Origin: Actinomycetes bacterium
Lineage (GTDB): Bacteria > Actinomycetota > Actinomycetes > Mycobacteriales > Mycobacteriaceae
Reading direction: 5' to 3'
Length of the DNA: 64,000 nucleotides
Assembly: GCA_023418505.1 (NCBI GenBank)
Contig: JAEZZR010000002.1
Span: forward strand, 48,585-112,584
Below the pieces are notes generated by a model that was given only the letters and a program-made list of their open reading frames with translations, was not told the DNA's origin and did not search any database. Shown piece after piece: positions 1,425 to 48,019 of the stretch. The translations under genes and the position numbers were made by a program. Within the stretch, counting starts at the first letter, position 1. Each line of letters starts with the position of its first letter.

Positions 1425-2843
1425 ATGAACACTTCAGATTCTTCTGCCCCTTCTGCCCCTTCTTGGTCCACTTCTTCTGGTGGTCTGATCATCGGGTTTG
1501 CTGATCAGGTAGATCACGATGATCCGCGCACCGTTTTCCGCGCCACCGGCATTCCTTATGCCAACGCCCCGCGTGGCCGGCTGCCTCAAATCCTCCATCC
1601 GGGTGTGGCTCCGATTCAGGCCACCACCCCAGGTCCTACTTGTCCGCAGGGGCCGATCTCTCCGATTTCGCGATTGCTCTCGCCGAAGGCTCAGCCTCAG
1701 GAGCACAGCGAAGATTGCTTGCGCTTAAGCATCACTACTCCCCCGGATCTGGCTGACGAAGAAAAACTGCCCGTCATCGTCTGGATCCACGGTGGCGGCA
1801 ATAACTCCGGCGGTGGCGATCTGCCCCGCTTCGCGCCCCATCGCATGGTCGCTGATCATCGCGTGATCGTGGTGGGGGTGACCTTCCGCTTAGGCTTCTT
1901 CGGATTCTTAGGGACGCACGATTCCGAGCTTGCCGACGACGTTTCAGTTACTCCCGGCAACAGCCACAGCAACTTGGCGATTTACGATGTGCGCACTGCT
2001 TTGCAGTGGGTTGCCGAGCACATCGCAGACTTTGGTGGCGATCCAGAAAAGATCACTGCCTTAGGTCAGTCCGCTGGTGCCGATCTAATCCTTGCGGTTT
2101 TAGCAGCTGCTGGACATGAAGACAGCGACATTCCTTTCCAGCGTGCGATCTTGCACAGCCCACCGTTGTCTTTTATTGAAGGACTCTTCCCAGAGCGTAA
2201 GGCTCAGCGCGCCGAAATCTTTGAGCACATGCGCCAATGCCAAAAAGACAATACCGATCTGGTGGCAGCAGAAATCGAAGCTTCCAAAGCTACGCTAGAG
2301 AAATACCCCGACGCCGGAATGCCGCTCGGGCCGGAATACGGGCGGGCACCACTTCCCGCAGATGAGAATGTCATCGATGCGCTAACGGCGTCGTTAAGCA
2401 AAATCGACGTCGTATTCGGGCATACCCCGCGCGAGGCAGGCTTGTTTATTTGGCCGCATCCGAAGGCGCAGAAGGCGCGGAAGATTCCGTTGGTGGGTAA
2501 GTCGCTGGTGGAAAAAGCGATCCACAAAGCCACAGAGAAAACCTACTTGAGCGCCAAGTTCGCCGAGATTTCCAGCTCCGCCCGGCGCGCCTATCAATTC
2601 GAGTTCGATTGGGGTGCGGCCGACAACCCATACCGGGGCGTGCATACCAGTGAGTTGCCGTTGTTGTTCGGCAAGCAGGAAAGCTGGGAAGATTCGGTGC
2701 TGCTGGAAGATACGCGGTGGGAGCTGGTCATCGAAGACGGGCGTGCGCTGTCGCAGTTGTGGGCGCAGTTTGCTCGCGACGGTGAACTTGCCAGTGGTGC
2801 CACGAAGTTCCATTACGGGCAGTTGGATCTCAAGCAGCGCTAG
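1425..2843 (+). CDS. Carboxylesterase/lipase family protein (type B, para-nitrobenzyl esterase-like)
   Basis: 472-aa ORF. Oxyanion-hole motif VIVWIHGGGNNSGGG and nucleophile elbow GQSAGA. N-terminus contains a 9-bp tandem repeat encoding SAPSAPS. Confidence 0.85.
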   Translation: MNTSDSSAPSAPSWSTSSGGLIIGFADQVDHDDPRTVFRATGIPYANAPRGRLPQILHPGVAPIQATTPGPTCPQGPISPISRLLSPKAQPQEHSEDCLRLSITTPPDLADEEKLPVIVWIHGGGNNSGGGDLPRFAPHRMVADHRVIVVGVTFRLGFFGFLGTHDSELADDVSVTPGNSHSNLAIYDVRTALQWVAEHIADFGGDPEKITALGQSAGADLILAVLAAAGHEDSDIPFQRAILHSPPLSFIEGLFPERKAQRAEIFEHMRQCQKDNTDLVAAEIEASKATLEKYPDAGMPLGPEYGRAPLPADENVIDALTASLSKIDVVFGHTPREAGLFIWPHPKAQKARKIPLVGKSLVEKAIHKATEKTYLSAKFAEISSSARRAYQFEFDWGAADNPYRGVHTSELPLLFGKQESWEDSVLLEDTRWELVIEDGRALSQLWAQFARDGELASGATKFHYGQLDLKQR

Positions 2844-2887
2844 CTATTCTGTACCGCTAGCTATTCTGTGCGGCTAGCTATTCCGTT
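2838..2887. repeat. Three tandem ~17-bp copies (CGCTAGCTATTCTGT...) spanning the esterase stop codon
   Basis: TAGCTATT(C/C)(T/C)GT starts at 2841, 2858 and 2875. The first TAG is the stop of CDS 1425..2843. Confidence 0.9.
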
Positions 2888-2915
2888 GGGGAGGGTTCTG
2901 TGTTAAACTCACCCT

Positions 2916-3863
2916 ATGCTTTCCCACCACCACGACCACGGGGATCATGGCGGACACGATCACGGCCACGGGCATAGTCATGCGCCGGCTACGGTTTCAC
3001 CGAAACGCCTGATCGCGGTAACAGCGCTGACGCTGACGATCTTCTTCGCAGAGCTCATCGGTGGTTTGGTCTCTGGGTCGTTGGCGCTGCTCGCAGACGC
3101 TGGTCACATGCTTACCGACGCAGCTGGCCTACTCATGGCATTGGCTGCGATCTTCATTGGCCGCAAGCAGGCGTCGAACGCGGCGACCTATGGTTACCGT
3201 CGCGCTGAGGTTTTCGCCGCTCTGCTAAATGCGATCAGTGTGCTGGCTATTGGTGTGTTCATTGTCTTCGAAGCGTTCCGGCGTTTTGGCTCGCATACGG
3301 ACATCAACACCACCCAGATGCTGATCATCGCCATCATCGGTTTGATTGCCAACTTGATTGGTATGTGGGTGCTGGCCGATTCTGCGAAGTCTTCGGTAAA
3401 TATCCGTGGCGCTTACCTGCATATTCTCACCGACGCTGCCGGTTCGGTAGCTGTGATTGTTTCCGCACTGGTGATTAGTAGTACCGGTTGGGTTGCCATC
3501 GACGCCGTGGTCTCCCTCCTGATCGCCGGCCTGATTGTCCCTCGTTCGATCAAGCTAGCTGCCACCTGTGTTTCGATTCTGATGGAACGCACCCCACAAG
3601 GGGTGAACGTGCAGGCCATCGAAGCTGATTTATTAGCTATCGACGACATTGACGCCGTCCATGACCTGCATGTTTGGTCTGTCTCCGGTACGGAAACTCT
3701 ATTGACTGCTCACATTGTGCTGGCGGAAGATACTCCGTACCCAGACTGCGATGTGCTAGATCAAGCTCAGACTGTGTTGCGAGACAAGCACAATATTGGC
3801 CATTCGACCTTGCAGATCGAACCACAAGGCCACAGCCAGCACGAGCCCGAAACCTGCCATTAG
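2916..3863 (+). CDS. Cation diffusion facilitator (CDF) family metal efflux transporter, CzcD/ZitB-like
   Basis: 315 aa. His-rich N-terminus (HHHDHGDHGGHDHGHGHSH), six TM segments, and HMLTDAAG and HILTDAAGS metal-site motifs. Confidence 0.9.
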   Translation: MLSHHHDHGDHGGHDHGHGHSHAPATVSPKRLIAVTALTLTIFFAELIGGLVSGSLALLADAGHMLTDAAGLLMALAAIFIGRKQASNAATYGYRRAEVFAALLNAISVLAIGVFIVFEAFRRFGSHTDINTTQMLIIAIIGLIANLIGMWVLADSAKSSVNIRGAYLHILTDAAGSVAVIVSALVISSTGWVAIDAVVSLLIAGLIVPRSIKLAATCVSILMERTPQGVNVQAIEADLLAIDDIDAVHDLHVWSVSGTETLLTAHIVLAEDTPYPDCDVLDQAQTVLRDKHNIGHSTLQIEPQGHSQHEPETCH

Positions 3864-3883
3864 GCTGTTGCCTTCTTAAGCTT

Positions 3884-5677
3884 CTAGCCTTCGAGCTGCT
3901 CGCCTAGCTCGAGCCATTCCATTTCTAGCTCTTCCCGTTGCTGGCGCACCTCATTCAGTTCGCGATCCAACCGAGCTAGTTTTTCGGTATCGATTCCCGC
4001 TGGATCGGCACTGGCCTCGGCTAGCTGCTGCTCAAGCTTGGCTTCATTATCAGAAAGCTTGGTCATCTTTCGCTCAAGGGCATTCATCTGTTTGCGCAAA
4101 GCATGCGCCTGCTGGTTCGAAGTCGCCACTACGGCTGACGCTTTTGTCGCTTGCCCGCTGCCTTCAGCACGTGCAGCCAATTCCGCCCGGCGCTGCAGGT
4201 ACTGCTCGATTCCACCTGGCAGATTGGTAATCTTTCCATCGCCGAATAGCGCCCAAGTACTGTCACAGATTCGCTCGATCAGGTAGCGGTCGTGGCTAAT
4301 CACCACCAACGTTCCCGCCCAAGAATCCAGCAGATCTTCTAGCTCCTGCAGCGTGTCGATATCTAAATCGTTTGTTGGCTCGTCGAGAAGCAAGAAATTC
4401 GGCTCACTCATCAACACGCGGGTCAGTTGCAAGCGACGTCGCTCGCCGCCGGAAAGATCCCCCACCGGAGTGCGCTGACGCTTCGGGCTAAATCCCAGAC
4501 GCTCCGCCAACTGCGAGGCACTAATCTGCTTATCGCCCACGGTGATGTAGCTGGCGATATCCTCGATCGCATTGATCACTCGGGTATCGGTGGGCAGATC
4601 ATCGAGCTCCTGGCGCAGCCAACCCTGCTGCACGGTTTTGCCCTCAATGCGGCGGCCACTTTGCAGCGGATAGGTTCCCGCCAGGGCAGACAGCAATGTG
4701 GTCTTGCCAGAGCCATTCACACCGACCAAACCGATACGCTCGCCAGGCCCAAGGCGCCACGTTTGCTGATCAACCAGGATGTTGCCGGCTGGATCGGCGA
4801 TGGTGGCGTCTTCGAGCTCTACGACCACTTTGCCCTGGCGTCGTTTAGCAAAAGCCAACAACTCCACGCTATCGCGCGGGCTTGGCACGTTGGCGATGAG
4901 TGCCTCGGCGGCCTCGATGCGATACCGCGGCTTCGACGTCCGCGCCGGCGCACCGCGACGCAACCACGCCAACTCCTTGCGCGCGAGATTCTGCCGGCGT
5001 TGCTCTGCCGCATCCGCCTGGCGCGCCCGCTCCGCCCGTGCGAACGTCCAATCGTTGTAGCCGCCGTCGTACATATCCACGGCGCCGTCATGCACTTCCC
5101 ACGTACGCGTTGCCACCGTATCTAAAAACCAACGATCGTGGGTGACCACCACCAGAGCTGCTTTACGACGGATCAAATGCTCGGCCAACCACTGCACACC
5201 TTCAATGTCGAGGTGGTTGGTGGGCTCGTCCAGAATCAATAGGTCGAGGTCTTTGACCAGTGCAGCGGCCAGATTCACGCGGCGGCGTTCCCCACCAGAG
5301 AGTCCACCCAGCTGGCTATCCATACCTAGCTCGGTGACACCAAGGCCACCCAACACTTCGCGAATGCGGCTATTGCCTGCCCACTCGTGTTCGGCAACAC
5401 CCAGCGGGGCGACGACGACGTCGTAGATGGTGGCGGTGTCGTCGAAATCTGCGGCTTGCGCGACGTAGGCCATTGCGAGATCCCCAGTACGCGCGACGCG
5501 TCCTTCGTCGGGTGGCTCTAAACCCGCCAAAATCTTCAACAGCGTTGATTTACCACCGCCATTAAGACCTACCACCCCGATCCGATCGCCAGTTTGGATT
5601 CCTAGACTGACCTGGTCTAACAGGACTTTCAACCCAAACGACTTCGAGATATTTTCGCAATTGATTAAATTCGCCAT
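3884..5677 (-). CDS. ABC-F family ATPase (Uup-like, two ABC domains, no TM domain)
   Basis: 597 aa. Two Walker A motifs (GLNGGGKST, GVNGSGKTT), two LSGGERRR signatures and a C-terminal coiled-coil tail. Confidence 0.9.
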   Translation of the reverse strand: MANLINCENISKSFGLKVLLDQVSLGIQTGDRIGVVGLNGGGKSTLLKILAGLEPPDEGRVARTGDLAMAYVAQAADFDDTATIYDVVVAPLGVAEHEWAGNSRIREVLGGLGVTELGMDSQLGGLSGGERRRVNLAAALVKDLDLLILDEPTNHLDIEGVQWLAEHLIRRKAALVVVTHDRWFLDTVATRTWEVHDGAVDMYDGGYNDWTFARAERARQADAAEQRRQNLARKELAWLRRGAPARTSKPRYRIEAAEALIANVPSPRDSVELLAFAKRRQGKVVVELEDATIADPAGNILVDQQTWRLGPGERIGLVGVNGSGKTTLLSALAGTYPLQSGRRIEGKTVQQGWLRQELDDLPTDTRVINAIEDIASYITVGDKQISASQLAERLGFSPKRQRTPVGDLSGGERRRLQLTRVLMSEPNFLLLDEPTNDLDIDTLQELEDLLDSWAGTLVVISHDRYLIERICDSTWALFGDGKITNLPGGIEQYLQRRAELAARAEGSGQATKASAVVATSNQQAHALRKQMNALERKMTKLSDNEAKLEQQLAEASADPAGIDTEKLARLDRELNEVRQQREELEMEWLELGEQLEG

Positions 5678-5684
5678 GACGTGA

Positions 5685-6770
5685 TTAGTCTGCCACAGTT
5701 ACGTGAGCTCCGGTACGCACACTGTGCACCATCCGCACCTGGCTGACATTGCCAAATGTGGCGGCATCAGTGATGAAATCCACGGCATCTTCCTTGTTGC
5801 CATCGGAGAACAAATACAGCAATCCCGGCCCCGTCCAATTCACTACTCCGTAGGCAGGCGCGCGCAGACTGCGGTACGGATTGCTTTGCGACGGGCGCTG
5901 CGCCAAGGTGGATCCAGTTTGCGGCGCTACTTCGATCTGGTTTTGCTGGGCGTCTCGGCGTCGGGAGTAAAACTGAACCGTTTCGCTGAGCAATGACTGC
6001 TGCACATCGCGCATTATCGGCCGGGCCTTAATTACTTCCGGTTGCATGGCGTTGACGAAGTTGCTGCCGACGGCATCCGCATCCCCACCGGCTAATCCTT
6101 GTTGCAACTGGCGCAGACGCGGTGGCTGCTGTGGTTGCTTGGCTTCGAGGGCTTCAAGCAGCAACTCTGGTAGGAAATCTGCTTCTGTTTTCTCTGGCTC
6201 ATCCGTTTCGGTATCAACAAACCGCAGCCAGGAGGACGCCACCGACACCAACACCCATTGCAACTGTTCACGTGAAAGCATTTGGGCGAAGTCCGCTACG
6301 AAAGCAGCGCCGGATTCTTCGCTGCTGTCATCGCTGCTGTCTTCCTTGAGCTGGAACCGCACGATAGTGGCACCACCGCACATGCTTGCTGGCGCTAACG
6401 GATCGAACGTAGCTAGATCGCTTTCGCCGTCGTCAAGCGCAAACGCCAATGCTGCCAAGGTAGCTGCCGTCCGCCCAAACCCAACTGGTACTTGCTTATC
6501 GTGAATCACGATCTTCACAGGGATTTGCGCTAAACCCCCGAAAATGTCTCGCAGATAAGCCCCTACTGGCGCTGCCGCGTACGCCAAATCCGACCACTCG
6601 GTGCGTCCGGGCAGGAGCTGGACCGTAACAAAAGCAGAAATAGTCTGAGCCACCGCAACTTGACCATCAAAATAGGGCACTACCACGCCGGGAGCGGAAA
6701 AAGAGCCAAAAGAAATCCCGGGATTTTCAGCCGGATTTGCACTTTTGAAGCTAGACATGTTCTCTCCCAA
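5685..6770 (-). CDS. Divergent GHMP-kinase/IspE-like protein at the canonical ispE position (downstream of rsmA)
   Basis: 361 aa. Alignable by eye to mycobacterial IspE along its whole length (PVKIVIHDKQVPVGFGRTAATLAALAFAL; QWVLVSVAS; NWTGPGLLYLF...VRMVHSVRTGAHV). The N-terminal Lys motif and the Gly/Ser-rich phosphate loop appear lost. See finding. Confidence 0.55.
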   Translation of the reverse strand: MGENMSSFKSANPAENPGISFGSFSAPGVVVPYFDGQVAVAQTISAFVTVQLLPGRTEWSDLAYAAAPVGAYLRDIFGGLAQIPVKIVIHDKQVPVGFGRTAATLAALAFALDDGESDLATFDPLAPASMCGGATIVRFQLKEDSSDDSSEESGAAFVADFAQMLSREQLQWVLVSVASSWLRFVDTETDEPEKTEADFLPELLLEALEAKQPQQPPRLRQLQQGLAGGDADAVGSNFVNAMQPEVIKARPIMRDVQQSLLSETVQFYSRRRDAQQNQIEVAPQTGSTLAQRPSQSNPYRSLRAPAYGVVNWTGPGLLYLFSDGNKEDAVDFITDAATFGNVSQVRMVHSVRTGAHVTVAD

Positions 6771-6822
6771 TTAGTAGGCTCGGCCACGGTAACTAACCAA
6801 TATTGATAGAAGGATTTAAATC

Positions 6823-7050
6823 ATGGGACTTTTTGACAAGGCAAAGCAGAAGGCACAGGAATTTGCCAATAGCGACCAGGGTAAGGAAAAAGTTGACGGT
6901 CTGCTAGACCAGGCTGAACAGACTGCTACCGACAAGCTGGGCGAAGACAAGTCCGATCAGGTTAAGAAGGTTCGCGACGGCATTGAAGGCCAGCTAGGCA
7001 ACAACGACCAGGGTGGCGAAGAGCCAGAGCAGAACCCAGAGCAGAACTAA
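6823..7050 (+). CDS. Small hydrophilic protein, MT0933-like 'antitoxin' family (Rv0909-type)
   Basis: 75 aa. N-terminus [14 protein letters not shown]..., then a charged helical body typical of this actinobacterial small-protein family. SD-like GAAGGA upstream. 3' end overlaps the rsmA stop by 4 nt. Ends in a perfect 12-bp tandem repeat encoding PEQNPEQN. Confidence 0.6.
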
Positions 7051-7903
7051 TCTGACAAGCGGACAAAGTCCGCCACAGTTAAAGCTTCTCCCCGCAATTT
7101 GGGATCAATTCCCGCGGCGAGGAGCTTTTCTTCTGCCGCAGCACCCGAACCAAAGTGGCCAGATAGTGCGGCTCGTAGGGTCTTGCGACGCTGGGCAAAA
7201 GCAGCATCAATAATCGGCCACACTTTGCTGCGAAGTTCTTCGTCTACTGGCCAAGGGGCTTCGTCACGCTCGAAGACATCAATGCGCACCAGCCCAGAAT
7301 CTACCTTCGGCGCAGGCCAGAACACCTGCCGGCCAATCGCACCCGCTTTAGATACCTGGCCGTAGAAGCCCGCTTTCACACTAGGCACACCGTAAATCTT
7401 GGATCCTGGCTGAGCACTTAGGCGATCAGCAACCTCTTTTTGCACCATCACCAGTACCCGCCGGATCGAAGGAAACGTCTGCAGCATGTGCAACAGCACC
7501 GGCACAGAGACGTTATACGGCAAGTTCGCTACCAAGGCCGTTGGCTCCTGGGCAAAATCACCCGCCTGCACCGTCAATGCATCCTTATGCACGATCTCTA
7601 ACTCAGCACCAGGGGCATACGTCTGGATCGTTTCGGGCAGCTGCGACGCCAGCCGATCATCGATTTCTACGGCTGCCATGCGGCCACAGCGCTCTAGAAT
7701 TGCCAAGGTCAAAGAGCCGAGGCCGGGGCCTACTTCGACTGGGTAGTCGTCGTCAGCTAAATCCGCGGCCGTCACAATCCGGCGCACGGTATTGGGGTCG
7801 TGCACGAAATTCTGGCCGAGCTTCTTCGTAGGGCTGACATCTAGCTGCTCGGCTAGTTGTCGAATCTCTACCGGGCCTAGGAATTTCACTTCCAACTGCG
7901 GCA

Positions 7904-7904
<1 letters not shown>
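7047..7904 (-). CDS. rsmA: 16S rRNA (adenine1518/1519-N6)-dimethyltransferase
   Basis: 285 aa. [10 protein letters not shown] start region and SAM motif [14 protein letters not shown] start overlaps the rpfB stop by 1 nt. Confidence 0.95.
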
Positions 7905-9064
<1,160 letters not shown>

Positions 9065-9107
9065 TCAGGTAACAATACGATAAAGATCTACCGTTGTCTA
9101 CTGCACT

Positions 9108-9941
9108 TTAGGGCAGCTGAACACCATAAATTCGACAAGCATTATCAACAAGCTGCTGTGCCATTTCTGCTGGTTCCATGCCACGGGCTTCCGCCATGGT
9201 GCGCACTTGCCAGCCAATGTAAGTCGGTTCGTTGCGGGTGCCACGGTAGGGCTCGGGCGTCATATAAGGCGCATCGGTTTCTACCAGCAGATTCTCTAGT
9301 GGCGCATCGGCTACTGCCTGCCGCAAATCATCGTTGCGCTTAAACGTCACATTGCCGGTGAAGCTCAAGATATAACCACGGTCAATCGCTTCATGGGCAA
9401 CCTCGAGCGGAGAGGAAAAGCAGTGCAAGATCACTGTGCCTTCGAAATTTTGTAATTGATCTAACAGATCCGCATCGGCCTCACGGTTGTGAATCATCAG
9501 CGGCTTATTCACTGCGCGGGCTAATTCAGCATGCCACTGCATCGCTTCGATCTGCTGCTCGCGGGAGGCCACACCTTCCTTTTTGCCGATCCAGTACCAA
9601 TCCAATCCGGTCTCGCCGATGGCAACCACACGTGGATCTCGAGCCATTTCGCTCAAGCGGGTTTTTGCTTCGTCGTCAAGCTCTCCTGCCCTGGTGGGAT
9701 GGATCGCAGTGGCCGCCCACACACGTGGATCGGCGTGCGCTGCGGCGTAGGCGAGCTCAGTTTCTTCCAAGCCATCGCCAATCGTGCATACACCTACGAC
9801 GCCAGCATCGGCCGCGCGATCGAGCAGCGCCTGCACCTGGTCAGCACTACGCGCACCACACGATGCCAGGTGCGTGTGTGCATCAAATAACGGACCGAAC
9901 TTGGGGGCTGGTTGAGGTTCCGGGCGTTTCTTCTTAGCCAT
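9108..9941 (-). CDS. tatD: TatD family metal-dependent hydrolase/DNase
   Basis: 277 aa. FDAHTHL start motif, then IGETGLDWYW and the VETDAPYMTP motif. Confidence 0.9.
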   Translation of the reverse strand: MAKKKRPEPQPAPKFGPLFDAHTHLASCGARSADQVQALLDRAADAGVVGVCTIGDGLEETELAYAAAHADPRVWAATAIHPTRAGELDDEAKTRLSEMARDPRVVAIGETGLDWYWIGKKEGVASREQQIEAMQWHAELARAVNKPLMIHNREADADLLDQLQNFEGTVILHCFSSPLEVAHEAIDRGYILSFTGNVTFKRNDDLRQAVADAPLENLLVETDAPYMTPEPYRGTRNEPTYIGWQVRTMAEARGMEPAEMAQQLVDNACRIYGVQLP

Positions 9942-10116
9942 AATTCCACGGTAGTACGTCTGACACTGTTAATATTATTTAATACTCAACTTACTGGTGT
10001 AATAATAACTGCCTACCGCACCCAGGAAAGTGCAGTTAGGTTCCGGCTACTCCATCAGCCCAAGCAGGAGCCATACACCGGGACGTTTCTTCTGCTGACA
10101 ACCTCAAGGAGATTGC

Positions 10117-10839
10117 ATGCTCGACAACAACACCCCACCGAAAAGAGTATCCCGGTGGGAAAAACCCCGTTCCGGCAATTACGGACATAGCAATCCCCAC
10201 GGCAAGAAGACCGGCCCTAAGCCCACGTTTTCCACCGAAGAGGCGGTACAGGCTGCACTAGACGTAGGCATCGATCGCTTTACGCTTGCACAGGTGTCGA
10301 AGCGACTGGGCGTATCTTCGCCATCGCTGTATCGCATCGCGCGCTCGCGTGCCGAGCTGGTAGATAAGTGCATCGCGTACATCGCCGATAGCACGCCCAC
10401 CACCGCATTGGGCAGCAGCTGGCAGGAAGTTTTGCTGCATTTCGCCGAAGAAGCGTGGAAGGTCTACGAAAAGTACCCGGGCATGGATCGCATTGTGATC
10501 AGCCATCCATGCGCCTGCGTGTACTTCCAACCGCATTTGAGCGCCTACGCCGAAGCTATGCAAGCCGGTAATTTCCCGGGTGATGCCGAGCAGCGCGCGT
10601 TTTTGCTGGGCTTTGTTAATGACATCACCGCTGTGACCCACCTAGGCAAGACCGCCTCGGAGCTTAACGACGGCTGCATGATCAGCACCGAAGACGAATT
10701 CAAGAAGTTCGCCATGAAGCACGCCGAACGACGCCGCTTTACACCAGTGCTGGTAGAAAGCCTCTACGAGTCCAACGTTGATGCTTTACGACGTAAAGTG
10801 AACTTCGCTATCGCAGCAATGGAAGCACAGCTGAGCTAG
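10117..10839 (+). CDS. TetR-family-like transcriptional regulator
   Basis: 240 aa. N-terminal HTH resembling TetR_N (FTLAQVSKRLGVSSPSLYRIARSRAELV). The C-terminal domain is not recognisable. Confidence 0.65.
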   Translation: MLDNNTPPKRVSRWEKPRSGNYGHSNPHGKKTGPKPTFSTEEAVQAALDVGIDRFTLAQVSKRLGVSSPSLYRIARSRAELVDKCIAYIADSTPTTALGSSWQEVLLHFAEEAWKVYEKYPGMDRIVISHPCACVYFQPHLSAYAEAMQAGNFPGDAEQRAFLLGFVNDITAVTHLGKTASELNDGCMISTEDEFKKFAMKHAERRRFTPVLVESLYESNVDALRRKVNFAIAAMEAQLS

Positions 10840-10883
10840 CCGAACTGGGCTAGCTGAGCCGGGCTAACTGAGCCCGGCTAGCC
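10829..10883. repeat. Degenerate tandem copies of GCTGAGC/GGCTAGC after the TetR-like stop codon
   Basis: CAGCTGAGCTAGCC, GGGCTAGCTGAGCC, GGGCTAACTGAGCC and CGGCTAGCC. The array also forms the hairpin AGCCGGGCT-AACTG-AGCCCGGCT. Confidence 0.8.
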
Positions 10884-10891
10884 CTACTGGC

Positions 10892-12727
10892 TTACTTCTG
10901 CACCGGCGCCCATTCGGGGCCGGTCTCTGCGAGCTCTGGATCGAGCTTGCTAAACAGTGGCTTTGGCTTAGCCAGTGGGGTGCCAGGTTTCATTTCCCAG
11001 CGTGCCCATGAAGCTAACTGATCGGCGTAATCACCCATGATTACCGGGTAGCTACGTCCTTGTTCTGGCAACCCGGTACCTACTGGTGCCACTGGCATAT
11101 CATCGGCCACTTCGTGGATCTGTGGCATCGCTGCCCAGGTGCCTTCGCCGCCTAAGGTTTCGAAGACCTTCTGTGCACTTTCTGGCAGGTACGGAGTGAG
11201 CATCACATTGCAGTCGCTGACTACCTGCAGCGCAGTCCACAACACAGTAGCCAGGCGCTCACGCTGTGATTCATCCTTTGCCAGCTTCCATGGCTCTTGA
11301 GCTGCAATATAGGCATTGGCCTCGCCAACCACATGCATAATCGCCACAATGCCTGCACGGAACTTCGAAGCGGCGATAGCCTGACCGGCAGTTTCGAACG
11401 TTTGCTCGGCGAGGTCGAGCAAACGTTTATCGTCGTCAAGCAACTGCCCTGGTTGTGGTACCTCAGAGAAATTCTTAAACGCCATCGACACTGTGCGATT
11501 CACCAAGTTGCCCCAGCCGTTGGCGAGCTCGTTATTAATGCGGCGGACGAACTCATCCCACGTGAAATCGGTGTCCTGGTTTTCCGGACCGGCCACAGCG
11601 ATGAAATACCGCAGCGGATCGGCGCCGAAATCCTTCAGGAAGTCCTTCACGTAGATCACCACGCCCTTGGACGAAGAGAACTTCGAACCAGACATGGTGA
11701 GGTATTCGGAAGAGACAACCTCGGTAGGCAATTGGAGCTCACCCAATTCGCCCCCATTACCACCCTTAGAGCCCTGGCCGGAGTACCCCAGCAGCTCTGC
11801 TGGCCAGATCTGAGAGTGGAAGGTGATGTTGTCTTTGCCCATGAAGTAGTAGGACAGCGCATCTTCGCTATTCCACCACTTCCGCCAGGCATCTGGCTGC
11901 CCGGTGCGATACGCCCACTCAATCGAGGCGGACAGATAGCCAACTACGGCGTCGAACCACACGTAAAGCTTCTTGGCATTGTTATCTGCCCAGCCGTCCA
12001 GTGGAATTGGCACACCCCAGTCGATGTCGCGGGACATCGCACGCGGACGGATATCCTCCAGCAGATTCAGGGAGAACTTCAGCACGTTCGGGCGCCAGTC
12101 TTGCCGCTGCTGGAGCCATTCGGACAGTGCTTCGGCGAGTGCTGGCAGATCCAACAAGAAGTGTTCGGTTTCGATGAACTGTGGGGTCTCGCCATTGATC
12201 TTCGATTCTGGATCGATCAGATCGGCTGGATCTAGCTGGTTACCGCAGTTATCGCACTGGTCACCGCGTGCACCGGAGGCGCCACAAATCGGACAGGTGC
12301 CTTCGATGTAACGATCCGGCAAGGTACGGCCAGTCGAAGGCGAGATCGCACCCATTGTGGTTTGACGCACCATGTAGCCATTGTCGTAGAGGCCACGAAA
12401 CAGCTCTTGCACCACGGCGTAGTGGTTGCGGGTAGTGGTGCGGGTGAAAATGTCGTAAGACAGCCCCAGACCTGCTAGATCCTGCACAATTTGGCGGTTG
12501 TAACGGTCGGCCAGCTCAGTGACGCTAACCCCTTCCTTTTCCGCCTGGACTAGCAGCGGTGTGCCGTGCTCGTCGGTGCCCGAAATCATCAATACTTCGT
12601 TGCCACGCATTCGGTGGTACCTGGCGAAAACATCGGAAGGAACACCAAAGCCTGCGACATGTCCGATGTGACGCGGACCGTTCGCATAAGGCCAAGCAAC
12701 TGCAGTAAGGATTCGAGACATAACCAA
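10892..12727 (-). CDS. metG: Methionine--tRNA ligase
   Basis: 611 aa. HIGH-type motif ([12 protein letters not shown]), KMSKS-type motif ([10 protein letters not shown]) and a Zn knuckle CPICG...CDNCG. Confidence 0.97.
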
Positions 12728-12760
12728 TAGATTAATGCATCTAGCTCGCAGTTCTGATTC

Positions 12761-14038: not shown

Positions 14039-14072
14039 CTCTCTAGCGGCTAGCTCTTTATCGGCTAGCTCT
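14033..14072. repeat. Three tandem 15-bp copies with core GGCTAGCTCT between convergent genes
   Basis: Cores at 14033, 14048 and 14063. The first TAG (14036-14038) stops the pabB-like gene. The CTA at 14065-14067 in copy 3 is the stop of the minus-strand BCCT gene. Confidence 0.9.
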
Positions 14073-15837: not shown

Positions 15838-15875
15838 CGGAGTTTTCCTTTATTTACTTAGGGTTAGAGGGATAT

Positions 15876-17570: not shown

Positions 17571-17747
17571 TCTTTTAACGTGACCAGAAACTAGGAGTTA
17601 TTTCAAATGGAAACTGAAAAATCGCCTGGAAAAGGCACTAAATATGGGCGAATAAGCAAACTCTGCAGGTGGTTAAGGTTTCTATAGCTACTGTTCAGCT
17701 AGGAAATGCGCACGGTTTGATTACAATTCCTTAACGATTTCTCATAA

Positions 17748-33985: not shown

Positions 33986-34338
33986 TAACTCTCGTTTCCC
34001 TCAGGATTGAAACTTCGGGTCGCTTCCTGGACGATTATTATTGCTTTGCGTTTTCGCTTACGCGGGTATCGCATGCAGCCCAGAATCGTGCCCGAGTTGG
34101 GTAACAGATTGCGAGACAACAATACAGCCCACAAGGCTTAATGCCTAATCTAATACTGTTTCCCCTACTGTTTGCTGCGGGGATTAGCAATTTCAGGGGC
34201 GTACCTGTATGCTCGACAGTCGCTGTTGTCTATTTATTCGTTAGAGTTTGCATTCAACACTGCAGCAACCCGCGGATCGATAGATGCCACGCATCGCAAG
34301 AAGAGTAACTGCCACGAAGGTAGTTGCTAGTAAGAGCC

Positions 34339-35215: not shown

Positions 35216-35467
35216 ATGAAGCGCAATCAGAAGAATTCCAAGGCGCGGATGGAGCAGACCCGCCGCCCGAAGAAGAACCCACTCAAGGCCGCTGGCGTTG
35301 AGAAGGTTGACTACAAGGACATTAACTTGCTGCGTCAGTTCATCTCTGACCGTGGCAAGATCCGCTCTCGTCGCGTGACGGGCTTGACCCCACAGCAGCA
35401 GCGTCAGGTTGCTACTGCAGTCAAGAACGCCCGCGAGATGGCTTTGCTGCCATTCACCAGCCGCTAA
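35216..35467 (+). CDS. rpsR: 30S ribosomal protein S18 (probable second, Cys-less copy)
   Basis: 83 aa. [50 protein letters not shown]. Confidence 0.93.
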
Positions 35468-35493
35468 TTTGGCTCTCCCGCTGATTTGGCGCT
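35463..35493. repeat. Two copies GCTRATTTGGCNCT, 17 bp apart, spanning the rpsR stop
   Basis: GCTAATTTGGCTCT (contains the TAA stop) and GCTGATTTGGCGCT. Confidence 0.75.
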
Positions 35494-35619: not shown

Positions 35620-36834
35620 ATGGCTTTACGACGCTGCTTATCCGCACCCTTGATCGCGCTAGTGGCAATGATTGCATTGCTCGGGATATTGGTGGCGGGG
35701 TGTGGTAGCGGCGGGGATGACGGTGGAAACGGGAACAGCGCTGGTAATGCAAGCGATGCTGCAAATGCCCACACGATCGAGGACGTCGCCGGACGGGAGG
35801 TGTCCGTGCCAGAGCAGATCGAGCGCGTAATCCTCGGCGAAGGCCGAGCTGTGTTTGCTACTGCGGTGCTCAATCCTGATGATCCTTTCCAGCACGTCGT
35901 AGGCGTAGGCAGCGATCTGCACGAAGCTGCACCCACGTTCGAAGAACAAGTACTCGAAGTAGCGCCACATGGCAGCGATATCGCCGTAGTTGGCAACTTC
36001 GGCAAGGGTGATGTGACGGTAGAAAACCTTCTCTCCCTGGATCCCGATGTATTGGTGCTCACGCTCGACCACCGGGATACTCTGGCCGATACTGGCTTCT
36101 TAACTCAGCTGGATTCTGTGGACATTCCCTATGTGTTTATCGATTTTCGCCAAGACCCCATCGCCAATACGCCTAAATCTGCGGAACTGTTAGGCAAGCT
36201 TTTTGGCGCGGAAGAGCGCGCTGCCGATTTCGCTGGCTATTACGAAAACCAAGTATCCCAAGTGACTGATCGATTGGCTCAGCTGGAAGATCCTGCCGCT
36301 GAGAAACCAGAGGTCTTCCTGTGGCGTGCCGCTGGCATGATGGATTGCTGCTCCACGATGAAGGATGTGAATCTGGGTAACCTGCTTACCGTTGCTGGTG
36401 GCCGCAATATGGGCGACGAGCTACTGGATACCGAATTCGGCCAGATCACTCCAGAAAAACTCATCTCGATTCAGCCGGAGCAAATCATTGTTACTGGTGG
36501 TGCCTGGGCAACGGATAATGATCAGCCAACGTCTTACGTACCACTGGGCTACAACGCCACACAGGATAAGGCCGAAGCAGGTTTGGCAGGTTTGCTGGAA
36601 ACTCCTGGGTTTTCCGAGCTGACCGCTCCAGCGTCGGGAGGCTTCCATGCCATCTACCACCAGTTCTATCACTCGCCATATAACTTCATAGCACTAGCGC
36701 AATACGCGAAATGGCTGCACCCCGAACTGTTCGCGGATCTAGATCCAGAGCAGATTTTCGTAGACTTCCACCAGCAGTGGTTGCCATTTGCATACTCTGG
36801 CACGTTTTTCGTAACCGATACTCCAGCCGAGTAA
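35620..36834 (+). CDS. ABC transporter substrate-binding lipoprotein (iron-chelate/cobalamin-type periplasmic binding fold)
   Basis: 404 aa. Signal peptide with lipobox LVAGC. Followed by a FecCD permease and an ATPase. Confidence 0.8.
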   Translation: MALRRCLSAPLIALVAMIALLGILVAGCGSGGDDGGNGNSAGNASDAANAHTIEDVAGREVSVPEQIERVILGEGRAVFATAVLNPDDPFQHVVGVGSDLHEAAPTFEEQVLEVAPHGSDIAVVGNFGKGDVTVENLLSLDPDVLVLTLDHRDTLADTGFLTQLDSVDIPYVFIDFRQDPIANTPKSAELLGKLFGAEERAADFAGYYENQVSQVTDRLAQLEDPAAEKPEVFLWRAAGMMDCCSTMKDVNLGNLLTVAGGRNMGDELLDTEFGQITPEKLISIQPEQIIVTGGAWATDNDQPTSYVPLGYNATQDKAEAGLAGLLETPGFSELTAPASGGFHAIYHQFYHSPYNFIALAQYAKWLHPELFADLDPEQIFVDFHQQWLPFAYSGTFFVTDTPAE

Positions 36835-36846
36835 GGTTCGCGATTC

Positions 36847-37917
36847 GTGGCTCAGAAGACAACTCGCGACGGCGTCGCTAGCTATCGCAGCCGCAGCAGA
36901 CGCAAGCTAGTTGCGATCGCAGTGCTGTGCTGTATGGCATTTGGCGCGTTCGTGGTGGCCACGATGGTAGGTCCCTTCACAATCCCCGGTGGCACCGTAA
37001 TCCGCGGGTTGTTTCAACCGGAAGCGCTCGATACCACCACCCGAACCGTGCTGTGGGAGCTGCGCTTTCCGATGTCCGTGATGGCAGTGCTGATCGGCGC
37101 ATCGCTGGCGCTGGCGGGCTGCCAGATGCAAACTATTTTGGACAATCCCCTGGCTGAACCTTTCACCCTCGGCGTATCTGCTGCAGCGGCCTGCGGTGGT
37201 GCAGCTGCCATTGTGCTGAATTGGCACTTGGTAGCCCAGCCACAATTCAATCTGAGCCTAATCGCCTGGCTCTCGTCCTTCTTAGCCGTAGCGATTATCG
37301 TCAGTGCTTCGATCTGGCGTGGTGCTGGTGCTGAATCGATGATTCTGCTTGGCATCGCATTGGTGTTTCTCTTCCAGGCGTTACTGGCACTGCTGCAATA
37401 TCGTGCTTCTCCGGAAGCTCTGCAGCAGATCATCTTCTGGACGATGGGATCACTCCAACGTGCCACGTGGACTGCGAATGGAATAATCCTGGCTGCACTG
37501 ATGATCGCGGTTCCGTTTACCTTTGCGATGTCCTGGCAACTCACTGCACTGCGCCTGGGATCGGAGCGTGCTGCTGCCCTGGGTATCAATGTCACGGCCT
37601 TACGCGTAATCACGATGGTGGTAGCAAGCCTGTTGGCCGCAACCGCCGTAGCTTTTGCGGGCATCATCGGTTTTATCGGCTTGGTGGCCCCGCACATTGC
37701 CCGGCTTTTAGTCGGCGAGGATCAGCGCTACTTTGCGCCGGCCTCGATGGCAGCAGGCGCTGCGGTGATGGCAATCGCACATGCCGTATCCATCACTGTG
37801 GTACCTGGTGTTGCCATTCCGATCGGCATTGTCACCGCGCTGGTCGGTGTGCCGTTCTTCGTCGTGTTAATTTTCTCCCGGCGCGGAAATCACAGCCGAG
37901 CTAGGCAGCAAGGTTAA
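36847..37917 (+). CDS. FecCD-family ABC transporter permease (iron chelate uptake type)
   Basis: 356 aa, GTG start, about 9-10 TM segments. LGINV...L and GIIGFIGLVAPHIARLLVG motifs are typical of FecCD/BtuC. Confidence 0.9.
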   Translation: MAQKTTRDGVASYRSRSRRKLVAIAVLCCMAFGAFVVATMVGPFTIPGGTVIRGLFQPEALDTTTRTVLWELRFPMSVMAVLIGASLALAGCQMQTILDNPLAEPFTLGVSAAAACGGAAAIVLNWHLVAQPQFNLSLIAWLSSFLAVAIIVSASIWRGAGAESMILLGIALVFLFQALLALLQYRASPEALQQIIFWTMGSLQRATWTANGIILAALMIAVPFTFAMSWQLTALRLGSERAAALGINVTALRVITMVVASLLAATAVAFAGIIGFIGLVAPHIARLLVGEDQRYFAPASMAAGAAVMAIAHAVSITVVPGVAIPIGIVTALVGVPFFVVLIFSRRGNHSRARQQG

Positions 37918-37928
37918 GGGGTGCACTC

Positions 37929-38774
37929 ATGCAGAATCATTCGAATCGACATTCCCGTGCGACCCCAGAGTCTGTTTCCTCCCCGGAGTCCGTCACCTTG
38001 AGTATCGACAATCTCACCGTCTCTTACGGCACGCGGAAGGTGCTCTCGAATGCGACGATTACTCCCGTGGAAACTGGAACTATTGCCGGCATCATCGGCC
38101 CGAATGCCACTGGTAAATCCACGTTGCTAAAAACTATTGCTGGGATTAAGAAAGCTGACGACGGAAAAGTCACCCTATCCGTCAACGGCCAGGCTCTCTC
38201 GTCGAAAGCGAAGAAAAGCGCGATCGGCTACGTGCCACAGGATTTTTTGTCTAGCGCTGCGCTCACCGCGTTCGAATCTGTGCTGATCGCGGCCCGGCGC
38301 CACACAAGCACGCACAACCGCCTCCTTCTCAGCATCGGCAAAGAACCCCTCCATGCCGTGGCAGCTGTCCTCGAGCGCCTCGGGATCACGCACCTCTCCG
38401 ATCGATATATCGGCGAACTATCCGGTGGCCAGCGCCAATTAATTGCTATCGCGCAGATGCTCGTGCGCCAGCCAGCGGTCATGCTGCTGGATGAACCAAC
38501 CTCAGCTTTGGATCTGCGCCACCAGGTGGAGCTACTGCAAACCATTCGCCACGAGGTTGCCACTCGGTCGTGCCTCGCGCTAGTCGCGATTCATGATCTG
38601 AATCTTGCGGCACGCTATTGCGATTATCTGATTGTGCTCAGTGGCCAGCACATCGCAGCCGAAGGCCGCCCGAAAGACATCATTTCCTCTGAATTGCTCG
38701 AGGAGGTCTACGGCTTCCGCGCCCGAGTTTTAGACGACCAGGGTACGCCGGTAGTGTCCCCCGTCGTAAGCTAA
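37929..38774 (+). CDS. ABC transporter ATP-binding protein (FecE/FhuC-like)
   Basis: 281 aa. Walker A GPNATGKST, signature LSGGQRQ, Walker B MLLDEPTSALD. Confidence 0.9.
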   Translation: MQNHSNRHSRATPESVSSPESVTLSIDNLTVSYGTRKVLSNATITPVETGTIAGIIGPNATGKSTLLKTIAGIKKADDGKVTLSVNGQALSSKAKKSAIGYVPQDFLSSAALTAFESVLIAARRHTSTHNRLLLSIGKEPLHAVAAVLERLGITHLSDRYIGELSGGQRQLIAIAQMLVRQPAVMLLDEPTSALDLRHQVELLQTIRHEVATRSCLALVAIHDLNLAARYCDYLIVLSGQHIAAEGRPKDIISSELLEEVYGFRARVLDDQGTPVVSPVVS

Positions 38775-42561: not shown

Positions 42562-42608
42562 GGTGCCATCATAACGGGACAGCCGGATTTCCTTGAGCGA
42601 AACCGAAT

Positions 42609-42632
42609 CACACTACAGCTCACGCTACAGCT
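42609..42632. repeat. Two tandem 12-bp copies CACRCTACAGCT spanning the stop of the PH-domain gene
   Basis: Minus strand reads AGCTGTAGCGTG AGCTGTAGTGTG. The two TAG codons are in frame. Confidence 0.85.
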
Positions 42633-43134
42633 GCTGGATGGCCTGTCGGATAGCTTTTGCTACTTTGCGGGGTTTGGGGATCCCGTCGATAGCTATCGGC
42701 ACCCCATAGGGATAGACGGTGAGCACCACGGATTTCTTCTGCTTTTCAACGTTGCCAATCGAACGCAGATCATAAATCGTGCAGTGGCGCCGGAACACGC
42801 CTTGGCGCAGGATGATCTGAAAATTCGTGACTACCAACCGGTGCGACAGCCATTCCGCGGTAGGTTTCGCAGCCCGCCACGCAGCCAGGATGAGCCACAG
42901 CGCAATCAGGCCGGTGCGCAACGGCGAGCCGCCCGCCGTCGGATCAGCTGCCATTGCCTCTGCAGGACCGGCAAACACCGAATGATCCATTAGCCCAATG
43001 ATCAGCCAAATCACACCGGTGAGCGCCAGCACTTCCAGCAACGGCCACAACAATTGAGAAAAGTTTGGATTGGTATCAACGATGACGTATTCGCCTTCAT
43101 GCATATGCGCCCACGGAAATTGCTGCTGTGCCAT
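42625..43134 (-). CDS. Bacterial PH (bPH_2/YdbS-like) domain membrane protein
   Basis: 169 aa. Two N-terminal TM segments followed by a PH-like segment. Position next to purK resembles Rv3277/Rv3278c. Confidence 0.65.
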   Translation of the reverse strand: MAQQQFPWAHMHEGEYVIVDTNPNFSQLLWPLLEVLALTGVIWLIIGLMDHSVFAGPAEAMAADPTAGGSPLRTGLIALWLILAAWRAAKPTAEWLSHRLVVTNFQIILRQGVFRRHCTIYDLRSIGNVEKQKKSVVLTVYPYGVPIAIDGIPKPRKVAKAIRQAIQQL

Positions 43135-43914: not shown

Positions 43915-43947
43915 CTAAACGCTAACAGTTGCTTAGCTTGTTGCTGA

Positions 43948-45003
43948 TTACTTAGCTTCGCAGCGCGTGATCGCTTCGTCAGCCACCATTTCCTGGATGC
44001 CCATGTCCAGTTCAGAGGTAAAGCCCACGCAAGAGCAGTTGATTTCACCTAGGACGTAGGTGTCTTCGCCGTCTTCTCCGTCGGCAAGCATGAAATCGGC
44101 AGTCCAGATCAATGGGATGTTGTCGCCGCCGAGCTTCTCTGCAATTACCGGGCGAGCTTCGGCGAACATGTCGATCAGTTCCTGCCACTGTTCTGGCTTG
44201 TCGTAGGAGTACTTCGCACCAGAGAACAGCGTGGCCGAGAAGTTATCGCCACCGGCAGCTGGCTTCTTGTGGACCACGAATACTGGGTGTGGGCCGACCA
44301 GCAGAATGCGGATTTCGCCTTCCACGATGCGAGGCATGAAGCGCATATCTACCAGCATGCCGTTGTCGCCGATAATGTACTGGTCACAGAAGTCCATGAA
44401 CTCGCCTAGTTCGCGAATTTCGGTGTGGTTATCCACGGCCTCAGTGCACTTCAACTTCGTATCCAGTGGCAGTGCGGTGCCTGGTTCTACCTTGGCGGCG
44501 AGTTCCTTATCTTCTAGCTGCACGCGCCAGATGCCGGAACCCGTGGAGCCACGGTTTTGCTTCAGCACACGCTCGCCGTACGACAGCGAGGTTGGGAAGG
44601 TCTGGTGGAAGCTTTCGACGTCGTAGTAAGCGGCAGTGTCCGCAGGTACCAAGTCGGTGTCGTTGAGCTTAACCAGCGCGTCCTTTGCGCCGTAGGCCAT
44701 CATCTCTTCTGGGGTAGACATGCCTACTAGGCCGGCTTCGTTGCTCAACTTGGTTAGCAAGTTGAAGTAGCCCTTTTCGCCACCTGGGATGTTGCCTGGG
44801 TTTACGCGGGAGATGTAGCCGTCGAAGTTTGCCGAAACATAGTCGAACAATGCTTCGGACCACTCTGGACGGTAGTAAACCACCTCTGCGTTCCAGCCCT
44901 TTGCCTTGATGGCGTTGACGATTGGCATGGTGTCTTTACGGTGGCCGTCGAAGTACTTGTCTGATCCGCCTTCAACTTCGAATACCACGATGCTTTGCTT
45001 CAA
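43948..45003 (-). CDS. Uncharacterised ATP-grasp-like protein (possibly the 'Cj0069 family')
   Basis: TTG start at 45003 sits 6 nt after an AAGGAG SD. VLKQNRGSTGSGIWRV and GEINCSCVG resemble ATP-grasp nucleotide-binding elements. The family name is from memory only. Confidence 0.55.
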   Translation of the reverse strand: MKQSIVVFEVEGGSDKYFDGHRKDTMPIVNAIKAKGWNAEVVYYRPEWSEALFDYVSANFDGYISRVNPGNIPGGEKGYFNLLTKLSNEAGLVGMSTPEEMMAYGAKDALVKLNDTDLVPADTAAYYDVESFHQTFPTSLSYGERVLKQNRGSTGSGIWRVQLEDKELAAKVEPGTALPLDTKLKCTEAVDNHTEIRELGEFMDFCDQYIIGDNGMLVDMRFMPRIVEGEIRILLVGPHPVFVVHKKPAAGGDNFSATLFSGAKYSYDKPEQWQELIDMFAEARPVIAEKLGGDNIPLIWTADFMLADGEDGEDTYVLGEINCSCVGFTSELDMGIQEMVADEAITRCEAK

Positions 45004-46273: not shown

Positions 46274-47857
46274 ATGATGGCGAAGCTGCCGAATCAGTTT
46301 GAAAAAGAGTTCGACGCTCTTACGCGCGCGTGGCGTACCCGCCGTGATGAGCCCATTATCGCTGCGATCGATCAGGGCACCACTTCTACCCGATGCATCC
46401 TGTTTGATCGCGACGGCAAAAAGCAGGGTATCAGCCAGCTCGAACACCGCCAGATCATGCCGCAACCGGGTTGGGTGGAACACGATCCGAAAGAGATCTG
46501 GCGTAACACCCGGCGCGTAGTGGCCGACGTGATGGCTAATTCGGATTGGAATGCCGACGATGTAGCCGCCCTAGGTATTACCAACCAGCGCGAGACCACC
46601 ATCGTGTGGAATAAGAACACTGGCAAACCGGTATATAACGCCATCGTGTGGCAGGACACTCGCACTACGGAATTGTGCCGGCATCTGGAGGAAACTCTCG
46701 GCGAGGCTCATATCCGTAAAGTTACGGGTCTGCCGATTTCGACGTATTTCTCTGGCCCGAAGATCTCGTGGATTCTGGATAACGTTTCCGGCGCACGCGA
46801 GGCTGCCGAAGCTGGTGATCTACTCTTTGGCACCGTTGATTCGTGGTTGATGTGGAATCTCACCCGGCGCGACAAGCAGGATAAGAAGGGCTTGCACGTC
46901 ACTGACGTCACCAATGCGTCGCGCACGATGCTAATGAACGTCGAGACCCTCGAGTGGGATGAAGAGCTTTGCGACGCCATGGGCATACCGATGTCTATGC
47001 TGCCGACGATCGTTAGCTCCTCGCAGTATTTGGGCAAGGTGCGATGGCAAGGCAGCCTGGCAGGCGTGCCAATTGGTGGCATTTTGGGCGACCAGCAAGC
47101 TGCATCCTTCGGGCAAGCGTGTCTAGAACCGGGTGAAGCGAAAAATACCTACGGCACCGGTAACTTCCTGCTGCTAAACACTGGGACAGTGCCGCAGCGC
47201 TCTGATCATGGGTTAATCACCACGATTGCCTACCGCATTGGTGATGAAATGCCGGTCTACGCCTTGGAGGGTTCCATCGCGGTGACCGGATCGCTGGTGC
47301 AATGGCTGCGTGACAATATGGGGCTGATTGCTACTGCCCCAGAGGTAGAACCATTAGCGCGCACTGTGCCCGATAACGGTGGCTGCTATATCGTGCCGGC
47401 GTTTTCAGGTTTGTTGGCACCACATTGGCGGCCTGATGCCCGTGGTGTAATCGCCGGACTGACGCGCTTTGTGAACAAAGGCCATATTGCTCGCGCCACT
47501 TTAGAGGCAACCGCCTATCAAACCCGCGAAGTTGTCGATGCCATGAATGCCGATTCTGGCGTTTCTTTGACTGCACTTCGCGTAGACGGTGGCATGGTCC
47601 CCAATAACCTGTTGATGCAGTTCCAAGCCGATATCCTTGGCGTGCCCGTGACCCGGCCTGTGATTACTGAAACTACTGCTCTCGGGGCTGCCTATGCAGC
47701 GGGATTGACCGTAGGGGTGTGGCGTTCTTTGGATGAGATTCGCCAAATGTGGAAAGAAGACCAAACCTTCACCCCTGATATGGATGGCCAAGAACGCGAG
47801 CGCCTGTTCGACGAATGGAACAAGGCAGTATCGCGCACCTTGAATTGGGTGGACTAG
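46274..47857 (+). CDS. glpK: Glycerol kinase
   Basis: 527 aa. [27 protein letters not shown] and [10 protein letters not shown] motifs. About 25 extra N-terminal residues relative to typical GlpK, so the start is uncertain. Confidence 0.95.
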
Positions 47858-47917
47858 TACGTGGCGCAGTGTTGTAAACTACGTTCCGGCTTAGCTTTCA
47901 ATAGCGAGTCGGATTTT

Positions 47918-47990
47918 GCCCTAGTAGCTCAGTGGATAGAGCACGGCTCTCCTAAAGCCGGTGTCGGAGGTTCGATTCCTCTCTGGGGCG
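47918..47990 (+). tRNA. tRNA-Arg (anticodon CCT)
   Basis: Hand-folded cloverleaf of 73 nt. Acceptor GCCCTAG/CTGGGGC, D stem GCTC/GAGC, anticodon stem CGGCT/AGCCG with loop CTCCTAA, T arm GGAGG-TTCGATT-CCTCT. CCA is not encoded. Confidence 0.9.
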
Positions 47991-47993
47991 CAA

Positions 47994-48019
47994 CTATAAA
48001 GGTCAGCTATAAAGGTCAG
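47994..48019. repeat. Perfect tandem duplication of 13 bp (CTATAAAGGTCAG x2), 4 nt after the tRNA-Arg 3' end
   Basis: Read directly: copies at 47994-48006 and 48007-48019. Confidence 0.9.

Follow-up and report, generated by a model that had tools for sequence, protein, structure and literature searches.

Short tandem duplications spanning stop codons in a Corynebacterium-like genome: a probable case of frequent slippage filtered by selection

In a 64,000-nt stretch of DNA from an actinomycete (GenBank assembly GCA_023418505.1, contig JAEZZR010000002.1, positions 48,585 to 112,584 of the forward strand; hereafter the window), many protein-coding genes end in short arrays in which the last codons and the stop codon are repeated head to tail, in two to five copies. 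Arrays are found at 13 of the 85 gene ends (15%) in an extended map of the contig, at 10 of 1104 (about 1%) in control Actinobacteria and at 1 of about 70 in syntenic loci of sister species. On balance, we favour the explanation that they are young, locus-specific tandem duplications made by microhomology-mediated replication slippage, in a lineage of Corynebacterium that acquires such duplications, or keeps them, to an unusual degree. The feature is real and well delimited; the most fitting reading is a burst, within one lineage, of a mutational process already known, which selection has made visible.

Results

The excess of arrays was measured on the window together with its flanks on the same contig, walked for 27 kb past the window, which gave a map of 81.5 kb with 75 genes and then of 91.2 kb with 85 genes (coordinates below 1 or above 64,000 are on the extended window scale). 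Gene calls were those returned with protein look-ups, and arrays were detected with Tandem Repeats Finder (TRF) and a gapless lag-match detector. The 91 kb contain 27 strict arrays, compared with 4 in the ~100 kb of six syntenic sister loci of equal G+C content (Fisher p = 6e-6), and this approximately 7-fold excess of short arrays is seen in every compartment. A tandem score of at least 10 was reached at 12 of 75 stop codons, against none of 75 start codons and 3 of 272 gene-interior segments; the enrichment at stops, put forward as a check in the original prediction made from the window sequence, is thus present. Dinucleotide-preserving shuffles produced about zero arrays at a score of at least 12, versus 11 observed. 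The pattern itself led to the choice of the window and the array numbers are small; 46 kb of the extended map lie outside the part that the original prediction had examined, and there the ascertainment is unbiased. The control set consisted of 80 loci of other Actinobacteria (1.36 Mb), chosen via homologues of the HtrA-like protein with 44-54% identity. A GC3-based gene caller was weak at 56% G+C (18 of 75 stops recovered) and was applied only to controls with 70% G+C or more.

The stop-spanning arrays begin 2-14 nt 5' of the stop codon, so that copy 1 holds the last codons and the stop (Table 1; arrays are named in the text by a start position). In the esterase array, copy 1 contains the last codon plus the TAG (2841-2843) of a carboxylesterase gene (1425-2843, Pfam COesterase). 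The array at 26866 repeats 12 of 13 bases at lag 18 and covers the last three codons and TAA of the 5-formyl-tetrahydrofolate (5-formyl-THF) cyclo-ligase gene (26000-26878, Pfam), with the second stop in frame. The one at 42608 covers the last two codons and TAG (42625-42627) of a hypothetical gene (42625-43134), again with a second TAG in frame; this gene had been labelled PH-domain, a label that we drop as no Pfam family was found in it. The in-frame back-up stops described for three arrays (periods 15, 18 and 12) are correct. In the HtrA-like array the unit equals the last codons plus TAG of gene 29781-31094, and its copies take up the larger part of the 65 nt that separate this gene from gene 29167-29715; the orthologous spacer in sister locus L089 has 19 nt and is repeat-free.

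At four convergent gene pairs (10829, 14033, 28068 and 70416) the array extends from stop to stop, and its collapse to one copy would make the genes abut or overlap. The array at 10829 occupies the whole 52-nt spacer, from the stop of the TetR-like gene (10837-10839) to 1 nt before the stop of the methionyl-tRNA synthetase (MetRS) gene (10892-10894, minus strand). The array at 14033 uses a CTAG as stop twice, in copy 1 for the chorismate-binding gene 12761-14038 (plus strand) and in copy 3 for the BCCT gene 14065-15837 (minus strand); reduced to a single copy, both genes would share one CTAG. At 28068, the mscL TAA (28079-28081) lies in copy 1 and the SDR stop (28088-28090, minus strand) in copy 2, and a single copy would leave the two genes with an 11-nt convergent overlap. 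The SDR gene (28088-28879) has a further array (28105) within its 3' end, adjoining this one. The in-gene array at 7024 duplicates the last four codons of gene 6823-7050 (plus strand) and adjoins the stop (7047-7049) of the convergent rRNA methyltransferase gene 7047-7904 (minus strand), the two genes overlapping by 4 nt. A longer overlap, of 26 nt, was seen at L100 2650-2675 between convergent genes 1578-2675 (plus) and 2650-3315 (minus) as called; if the gene calls are right, convergent genes of this genome may overlap extensively.

Three further stop-spanning arrays were found in the flanks, outside the range examined in the original prediction. Duplications also occur at sites that span no protein stop: one begins at the final base of tRNA-Arg(CCT) (47918-47991), as had been noticed, and other intergenic arrays lie at -1902, 65262 and L100:3337. 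A 57-amino-acid open reading frame (47861-48034) in the public gene call overlaps this tRNA and its array, and the call is probably spurious.

Eight of the ten sites initially listed were upheld as genuine head-to-tail arrays, seven of them (2838, 10829, 14033, 28068, 29730, 42608 and 47991) recovered by TRF and lag-match and the one at 26866 by its lag-18 match; those at 35463 and 43931 turned out weak. At the former, the rpsR stop is at 35465-35467 and the second "copy" aligns with a conserved downstream segment in sister loci L089 and L091; judging from this alignment, the period-17 repeat is probably not a recent duplication. The 8-mer pair at 43931 was reported neither by TRF nor by lag-match and is indistinguishable from chance. 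A candidate at 3861-3905, flagged by TRF under permissive settings, was unconvincing on inspection.

Table 1. Coordinates of tandem arrays and weaker repeats in the window and its flanks, and of the dispersed arrays in control loci
Feature	Position	Strand	Repeat
Esterase array	2838-2887	+	17-bp unit CGCTAGCTATTCTGTAC x 2.7-2.9; 90-93% identity; TRF score 78-83
In-gene array	7024-7047		exact 12 bp x 2, in frame; TRF and lag-match
TetR/MetRS array	10829-10891		14-bp unit (GCTAGCyGAGCCGG-like) x 4.3
Chorismate-binding/BCCT array	14033-14073		15-bp unit GGCTAGCTCTCTAGC x 2.7; 88% identity
5-formyl-THF cyclo-ligase array	26866-26896	+	period 18: AATTCCTGCCTAA-TTTTT-AATTCCTGCCTAG; lag score 11
mscL/SDR array	28068-28104		17-bp unit GCACTAAGCAATAAAGC x 2.2; 95% identity
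SDR in-gene array	28105-28122	-	exact 9 bp x 2, in frame; TRF and lag-match
HtrA-like array	29730-29793	-	about 5 diverged copies (11, 11, 11, 14, 14 bp) of CTGCCAAyTAG
rpsR repeat (weak)	35461-35493	+	period 17, 1.9 copies; TRF under permissive settings only
Hypothetical-gene array	42608-42632	-	12 bp x 2.1 (AGCTGTAGCGTG / AGCTGTAGTGTG)
8-mer pair ("weaker case")	43931-43958		GCTTAGCT twice, 20 nt apart, around the stop of gene 43948-45003 (-)
tRNA-Arg array	47991-48020	+	13 bp x 2.3 (CAGCTATAAAGGT)
Fourth convergent-pair array	70416-70479		with indels
Stop-spanning array	about 74750-74784 (L100 7848-7882)		9 bp x 4
Stop-spanning array	about 73218-73249 (L100 9381-9412)		16 bp x 2
Array starting 1 nt past a stop	L100 3337-3369
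Promicromonospora/Isoptericola family	L037 1846-1904, 13957-14015, 14025-14067; L031 14059-14110, 14178-14229
Promicromonospora/Isoptericola family	L052 1797-1862, 1943-1996; L057 1740-1851, 1960-2009; L040 1883-1922

Repeat periods differ between compartments: 14 of 15 in-gene arrays have a period divisible by three, versus 3 of 12 non-coding and stop-spanning arrays, where chance gives one third. Since nearly all periods within genes are multiples of three and those outside genes stay at the chance share, we infer a selective filter. The sole in-gene array with another period is an exact 11 bp x 2 (GTGGCGTCTTA) at 61681-61702, inside the ABC-2 permease gene 61557-62888, where the frame stays open and encodes part of a hydrophobic helix. 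No start codon in the extended map is spanned by a strict or out-of-frame array; the only start-spanning duplication found is an in-frame one of 12 bp at an aminotransferase gene (67113-67136, L088 15557-15580; ATGACCGAGAAC / ATGAGCGAGAAG).

The units are local, with no copy elsewhere in the 91 kb, outside the unit's own array, at up to two mismatches. They are also lineage-specific. With a G+C content of 56% and a typically actinobacterial gene order, the window has its nearest database proteins in uncultured and named Corynebacterium (MscL 80-84% identical, MetRS 85-88%), and on sequence grounds the source is a Corynebacterium-like species without close strain relatives on record. At the orthologous 3' ends in L089, L091, L093, L096, L098 and L099 the arrays are absent and the stop codons stand at conserved positions. 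The comparison of orthologous gene ends, another proposed check, therefore marks the arrays as the derived state, in terms of presence or absence only, as the closest relatives (80-88% amino-acid identity) are too distant for base-level reconstruction and their intergenic DNA is unalignable. Sister locus L093 carries its own 20 bp x 2 duplication (9074-9113, TTTAATGAAACCGATTCCGG), starting 2 nt ahead of the 5-formyl-THF cyclo-ligase TAA; at the end of this gene the window has an array too, unrelated in sequence. Spacers have a median of 58 nt, versus 69 nt in the sister species (p = 0.07-0.10), and greater genome compactness was rejected as the cause, since they are only slightly shorter than those of the sisters.

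Some genes of the window are missing from the sister syntenic loci, namely the SDR and BCCT genes described above, the Fec-type ABC transporter cluster after rpsR (35620-38774), the MT0933-like small gene 6823-7050 and the hypothetical gene 5685-6758. The BCCT gene 14065-15837 is 53% identical to the relatives' BCCT, of which the neighbour 15876-17570 is the orthologue.

Discussion

We favour frequent duplication followed by a selective filter because the excess appears in every compartment, the units are of local origin and the arrays are missing in relatives; the contrast in periods and the lack of out-of-frame arrays over start codons fit the same reading, which was one of the two offered in the original prediction. 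In the proposed sequence of events, slippage would make short local tandem duplications and selection would purge those that damage genes, so that within genes only in-frame ones would persist. At gene borders, the survivors would be those that start in the last codons and pass the stop, as copy 1 would keep the protein end intact. Where convergent genes abut or overlap, the sole harmless unit would be one that holds both stops, and its duplication would separate the genes. More slippage would then add more copies. Head-to-tail copies without spacer, made of a local unit, fit slipped-strand duplication, and a preprint names microhomology as the dominant origin of tandem duplications in bacteria, by microhomology-mediated duplication (bioRxiv 10.64898/2026.02.28.708716). 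To obtain a neutral expectation, simulated duplications were placed uniformly and the harmless ones kept, a model in which 11.5-18% of arrays span a stop. In agreement, 10 of 52 non-coding arrays (19%) are stop-spanning in the control Actinobacteria, which matches the neutral filter.

Several observations weigh against the idea that slippage and selection alone would account for the concentration at stop codons. In the extended map 10 of 20 non-coding arrays span a stop, well over the share expected under the neutral model (binomial p about 1e-3), and per eligible position stop-spanning arrays are about 8 times denser than wholly intergenic ones, which leaves a modest, unproven residual excess of 3-8-fold. 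This excess is inflated by ascertainment, because the stop share falls from 7 of 9 inside the range of the original prediction to 3 of 11 outside it (27%, not significant). Stop context matters as well: arrays stand at 4 of 7 GC-TAG junctions versus 6 of 70 others (p = 0.004), 7 of 10 TAG-C stops carry one versus 2 of 19 other TAG stops, and all four genes ending in GC-TAG-C bear one, an association that a pure filter does not predict. Additionally, 4 strong and 2 weak arrays stand at 13 junctions with lineage-specific genes, versus 2 at 24 conserved junctions. These two associations are suggestive; new junctions under weaker constraint could yield both, as could a real hot spot at the ends of genes. 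Regarding the mechanism, the partial extra copies measure 1-4 nt (GCA at 28068, CAGC at 47991, 0-1 nt in others), too short to separate slippage from chance, and with microhomology arms of 1-4 nt slippage is indistinguishable from other duplication routes. Protein clusters hold one or two sequences without strain variants, and the recovered contigs are all identical. A rather unlikely alternative that would accommodate the residual excess is that gene 3' ends, especially new convergent junctions, are true hot spots of duplication or sites selected for it. Hot spots could arise as a by-product of the illegitimate recombination that inserts neighbour genes, or from stalling at the point where translation stops and the RNA becomes naked; selection could favour duplications for making spacer DNA that un-overlaps genes. 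Besides the density and the GC-TAG or GCTAGC stop contexts, it is in line with this alternative that arrays occur at 5-7 of 16 convergent versus 5-7 of about 50 co-directional junctions, and that the strong arrays at 7024, 10829, 14033 and 28068 adjoin genes without sister counterpart (MT0933-like, TetR-like, BCCT paralogue and SDR). However, the numbers are small and come from a window chosen for its pattern, the stop share in the 46 kb outside the range first examined is close to neutral, and some arrays stand where the junction is conserved (26866, 29731), behind a tRNA, or far from any stop (-1902, 65262). The junction excess is significant only with weak arrays counted, and new junctions are expected to be less constrained, so that the filter model gives the same trend. 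As a tentative and somewhat doubtful extension, iteration of the last codons plus the stop may be a specific route to new 3' intergenic DNA in a compact genome, preferentially generated or retained at gene ends. This route may act chiefly at fresh convergent junctions and GCTAGC-type palindromic stop contexts, beyond passive filtering, and may un-overlap genes and occasionally give bidirectional hairpins (10829-10891). A restriction system that selects against GCTAGC or CTAG was considered separately and rejected (CTAG observed/expected 0.88; GCTAGC with 41 occurrences, not depleted).

The other reading of the original prediction, that arrays have a function as read-through insurance by tandem stops, in transcript 3'-end definition or termination, or in protein binding, is not supported, and we consider it improbable. 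Three or four arrays do supply an in-frame second stop (14033, 26866, 42609), and TAG-C stops, a context considered weak in Escherichia coli, are over-represented among array-bearing stops; but periods divisible by three, found in 3 of the 12 non-coding arrays (or 4 of 10 if stop arrays are taken), are no more common than the one third expected by chance (p = 0.74). The spacer at 10826-10895 forms strong hairpins on both strands (z = -4.7 on the plus and -4.0 on the minus strand) and is the only one of nine array regions that folds significantly, whereas the other eight fold no better than shuffles (z -0.9 to +1.1), for which a hairpin or terminator role was rejected. Intrinsic terminators were sought in 1-20000, with 22 terminator-like sites against 18.6 expected by chance and none within an array. 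Furthermore, the sister species lack arrays at the same genes, no motif beyond the stop context is common to the units, each being unique to its locus, and no Rfam family overlaps the arrays (the Rfam search did return an L31-Corynebacteriaceae ribosomal-protein leader at 33997-34097, minus strand, upstream of rpmE, with 62.6 bits). Units of this kind also bear on the view that the arrays form a dispersed family, like REP/BIME or MIRU repeats, settled at the ends of genes. An 8-mer, GGCTAGCT, is common to three arrays, and a family with core CGAGGTAG exists at gene ends in Promicromonospora and Isoptericola control loci; nevertheless, the shared 8-mer is mostly stop context (xGC TAG C), unit length and sequence differ locus by locus, and in the 91 kb the units lack copies outside their own arrays, by which this very unlikely reading is largely refuted. 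That the arrays are assembly or sequencing artefacts is hardly credible. The source is indeed a short-read metagenome assembly, yet the 134-kb MEGAHIT contig on which exact protein look-ups place the window (ERZ27269269 k141_35724) and Logan contigs (SRR13400991) are 100% identical across the arrays. With lengths of 24-64 bp, the arrays do not reach the k = 141 that the "k141_" contig name implies nor, presumably, the read length. Substitutions and indels between copies look evolutionary, and in-gene arrays keep the reading frame.

If the concentration at stops is indeed the work of selection on frequent slippage, the contig offers a clean natural case of purifying selection shaping a mutational burst, in which stop-spanning duplications would be the principal kind of "free" insertion open to a compact genome. 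This lineage also shows how overlapping convergent genes may separate and how a spacer may lengthen, from some 15 nt up to 65 nt. Such a burst suggests that replication or repair has changed in this lineage, flap processing being one example. On the practical side, the arrays are likely markers of the variable-number tandem repeat (VNTR) type, and they yield spurious small open reading frames and alter apparent 3' untranslated regions in annotation. If the residual stop excess proves real genome-wide, it would represent an undescribed coupling between gene ends and duplication.

As a special genome feature, which is how the pattern was initially presented, its frequency and the 3-8-fold residual are unusual, but as a kind of event the stop-seeded array is not unique to this genome, since about 1% of gene ends in other Actinobacteria bear such arrays too. 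Among the control loci, L027 2897-2975 carries a perfect CAACTGACCAG x 7.2 and L049 11575-11624 a GCGACCTAGCA x 4.5. At one and the same gene end, two Promicromonospora species have arrays with different units, of 13 bp and 11 bp (L023 6829-6894 and L039 6865-6896). Promicromonospora and Isoptericola loci also contain a dispersed family of 16-20-bp tandem arrays built on a common core, CGAGGTAG or GGGGTAGGC (Table 1); often in inverted pairs beside gene ends, these look REP/BIME-like, with a GTAG core.

Full-text literature searches returned no description of stop-spanning duplications as a distinct class in bacteria, and the preprint on microhomology-mediated duplication contains neither "stop codon" nor "intergenic" (10.64898/2026.02.28.708716). 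The TAACTGA direct repeats of Beggiatoaceae and cyanobacteria consist of one fixed heptamer genome-wide, lie mostly just upstream of start codons and have been proposed as regulatory binding sites (PMC4679880); the arrays described here, in contrast, have no shared unit and are tied to stop codons. They resemble tandem back-up stops where the second in-frame stop lies 4-6 codons downstream, as in three or four arrays, although here it would be a by-product, its share being no higher than chance. The MIRU repeats of mycobacteria, reportedly described by Supply and colleagues in 1997, are likewise tandem repeats in actinobacterial spacers whose ends overlap the stop of the upstream gene. As a dispersed family, MIRUs share one consensus and have units of 40-100 bp, and they overlap the downstream start codon as well as the upstream stop, whereas our arrays have unique units of 9-20 bp and do not involve start codons. 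The arrays behave like ordinary slipped-strand duplications, the precursors of VNTRs: like them, they are made of local 9-20-bp units repeated head to tail in 2-5 copies, and are young, lineage-specific and in frame inside genes. What sets them apart from typical slipped-strand duplications is that a stop codon lies within about half of the non-coding ones, and that 15% of the gene ends are hit.

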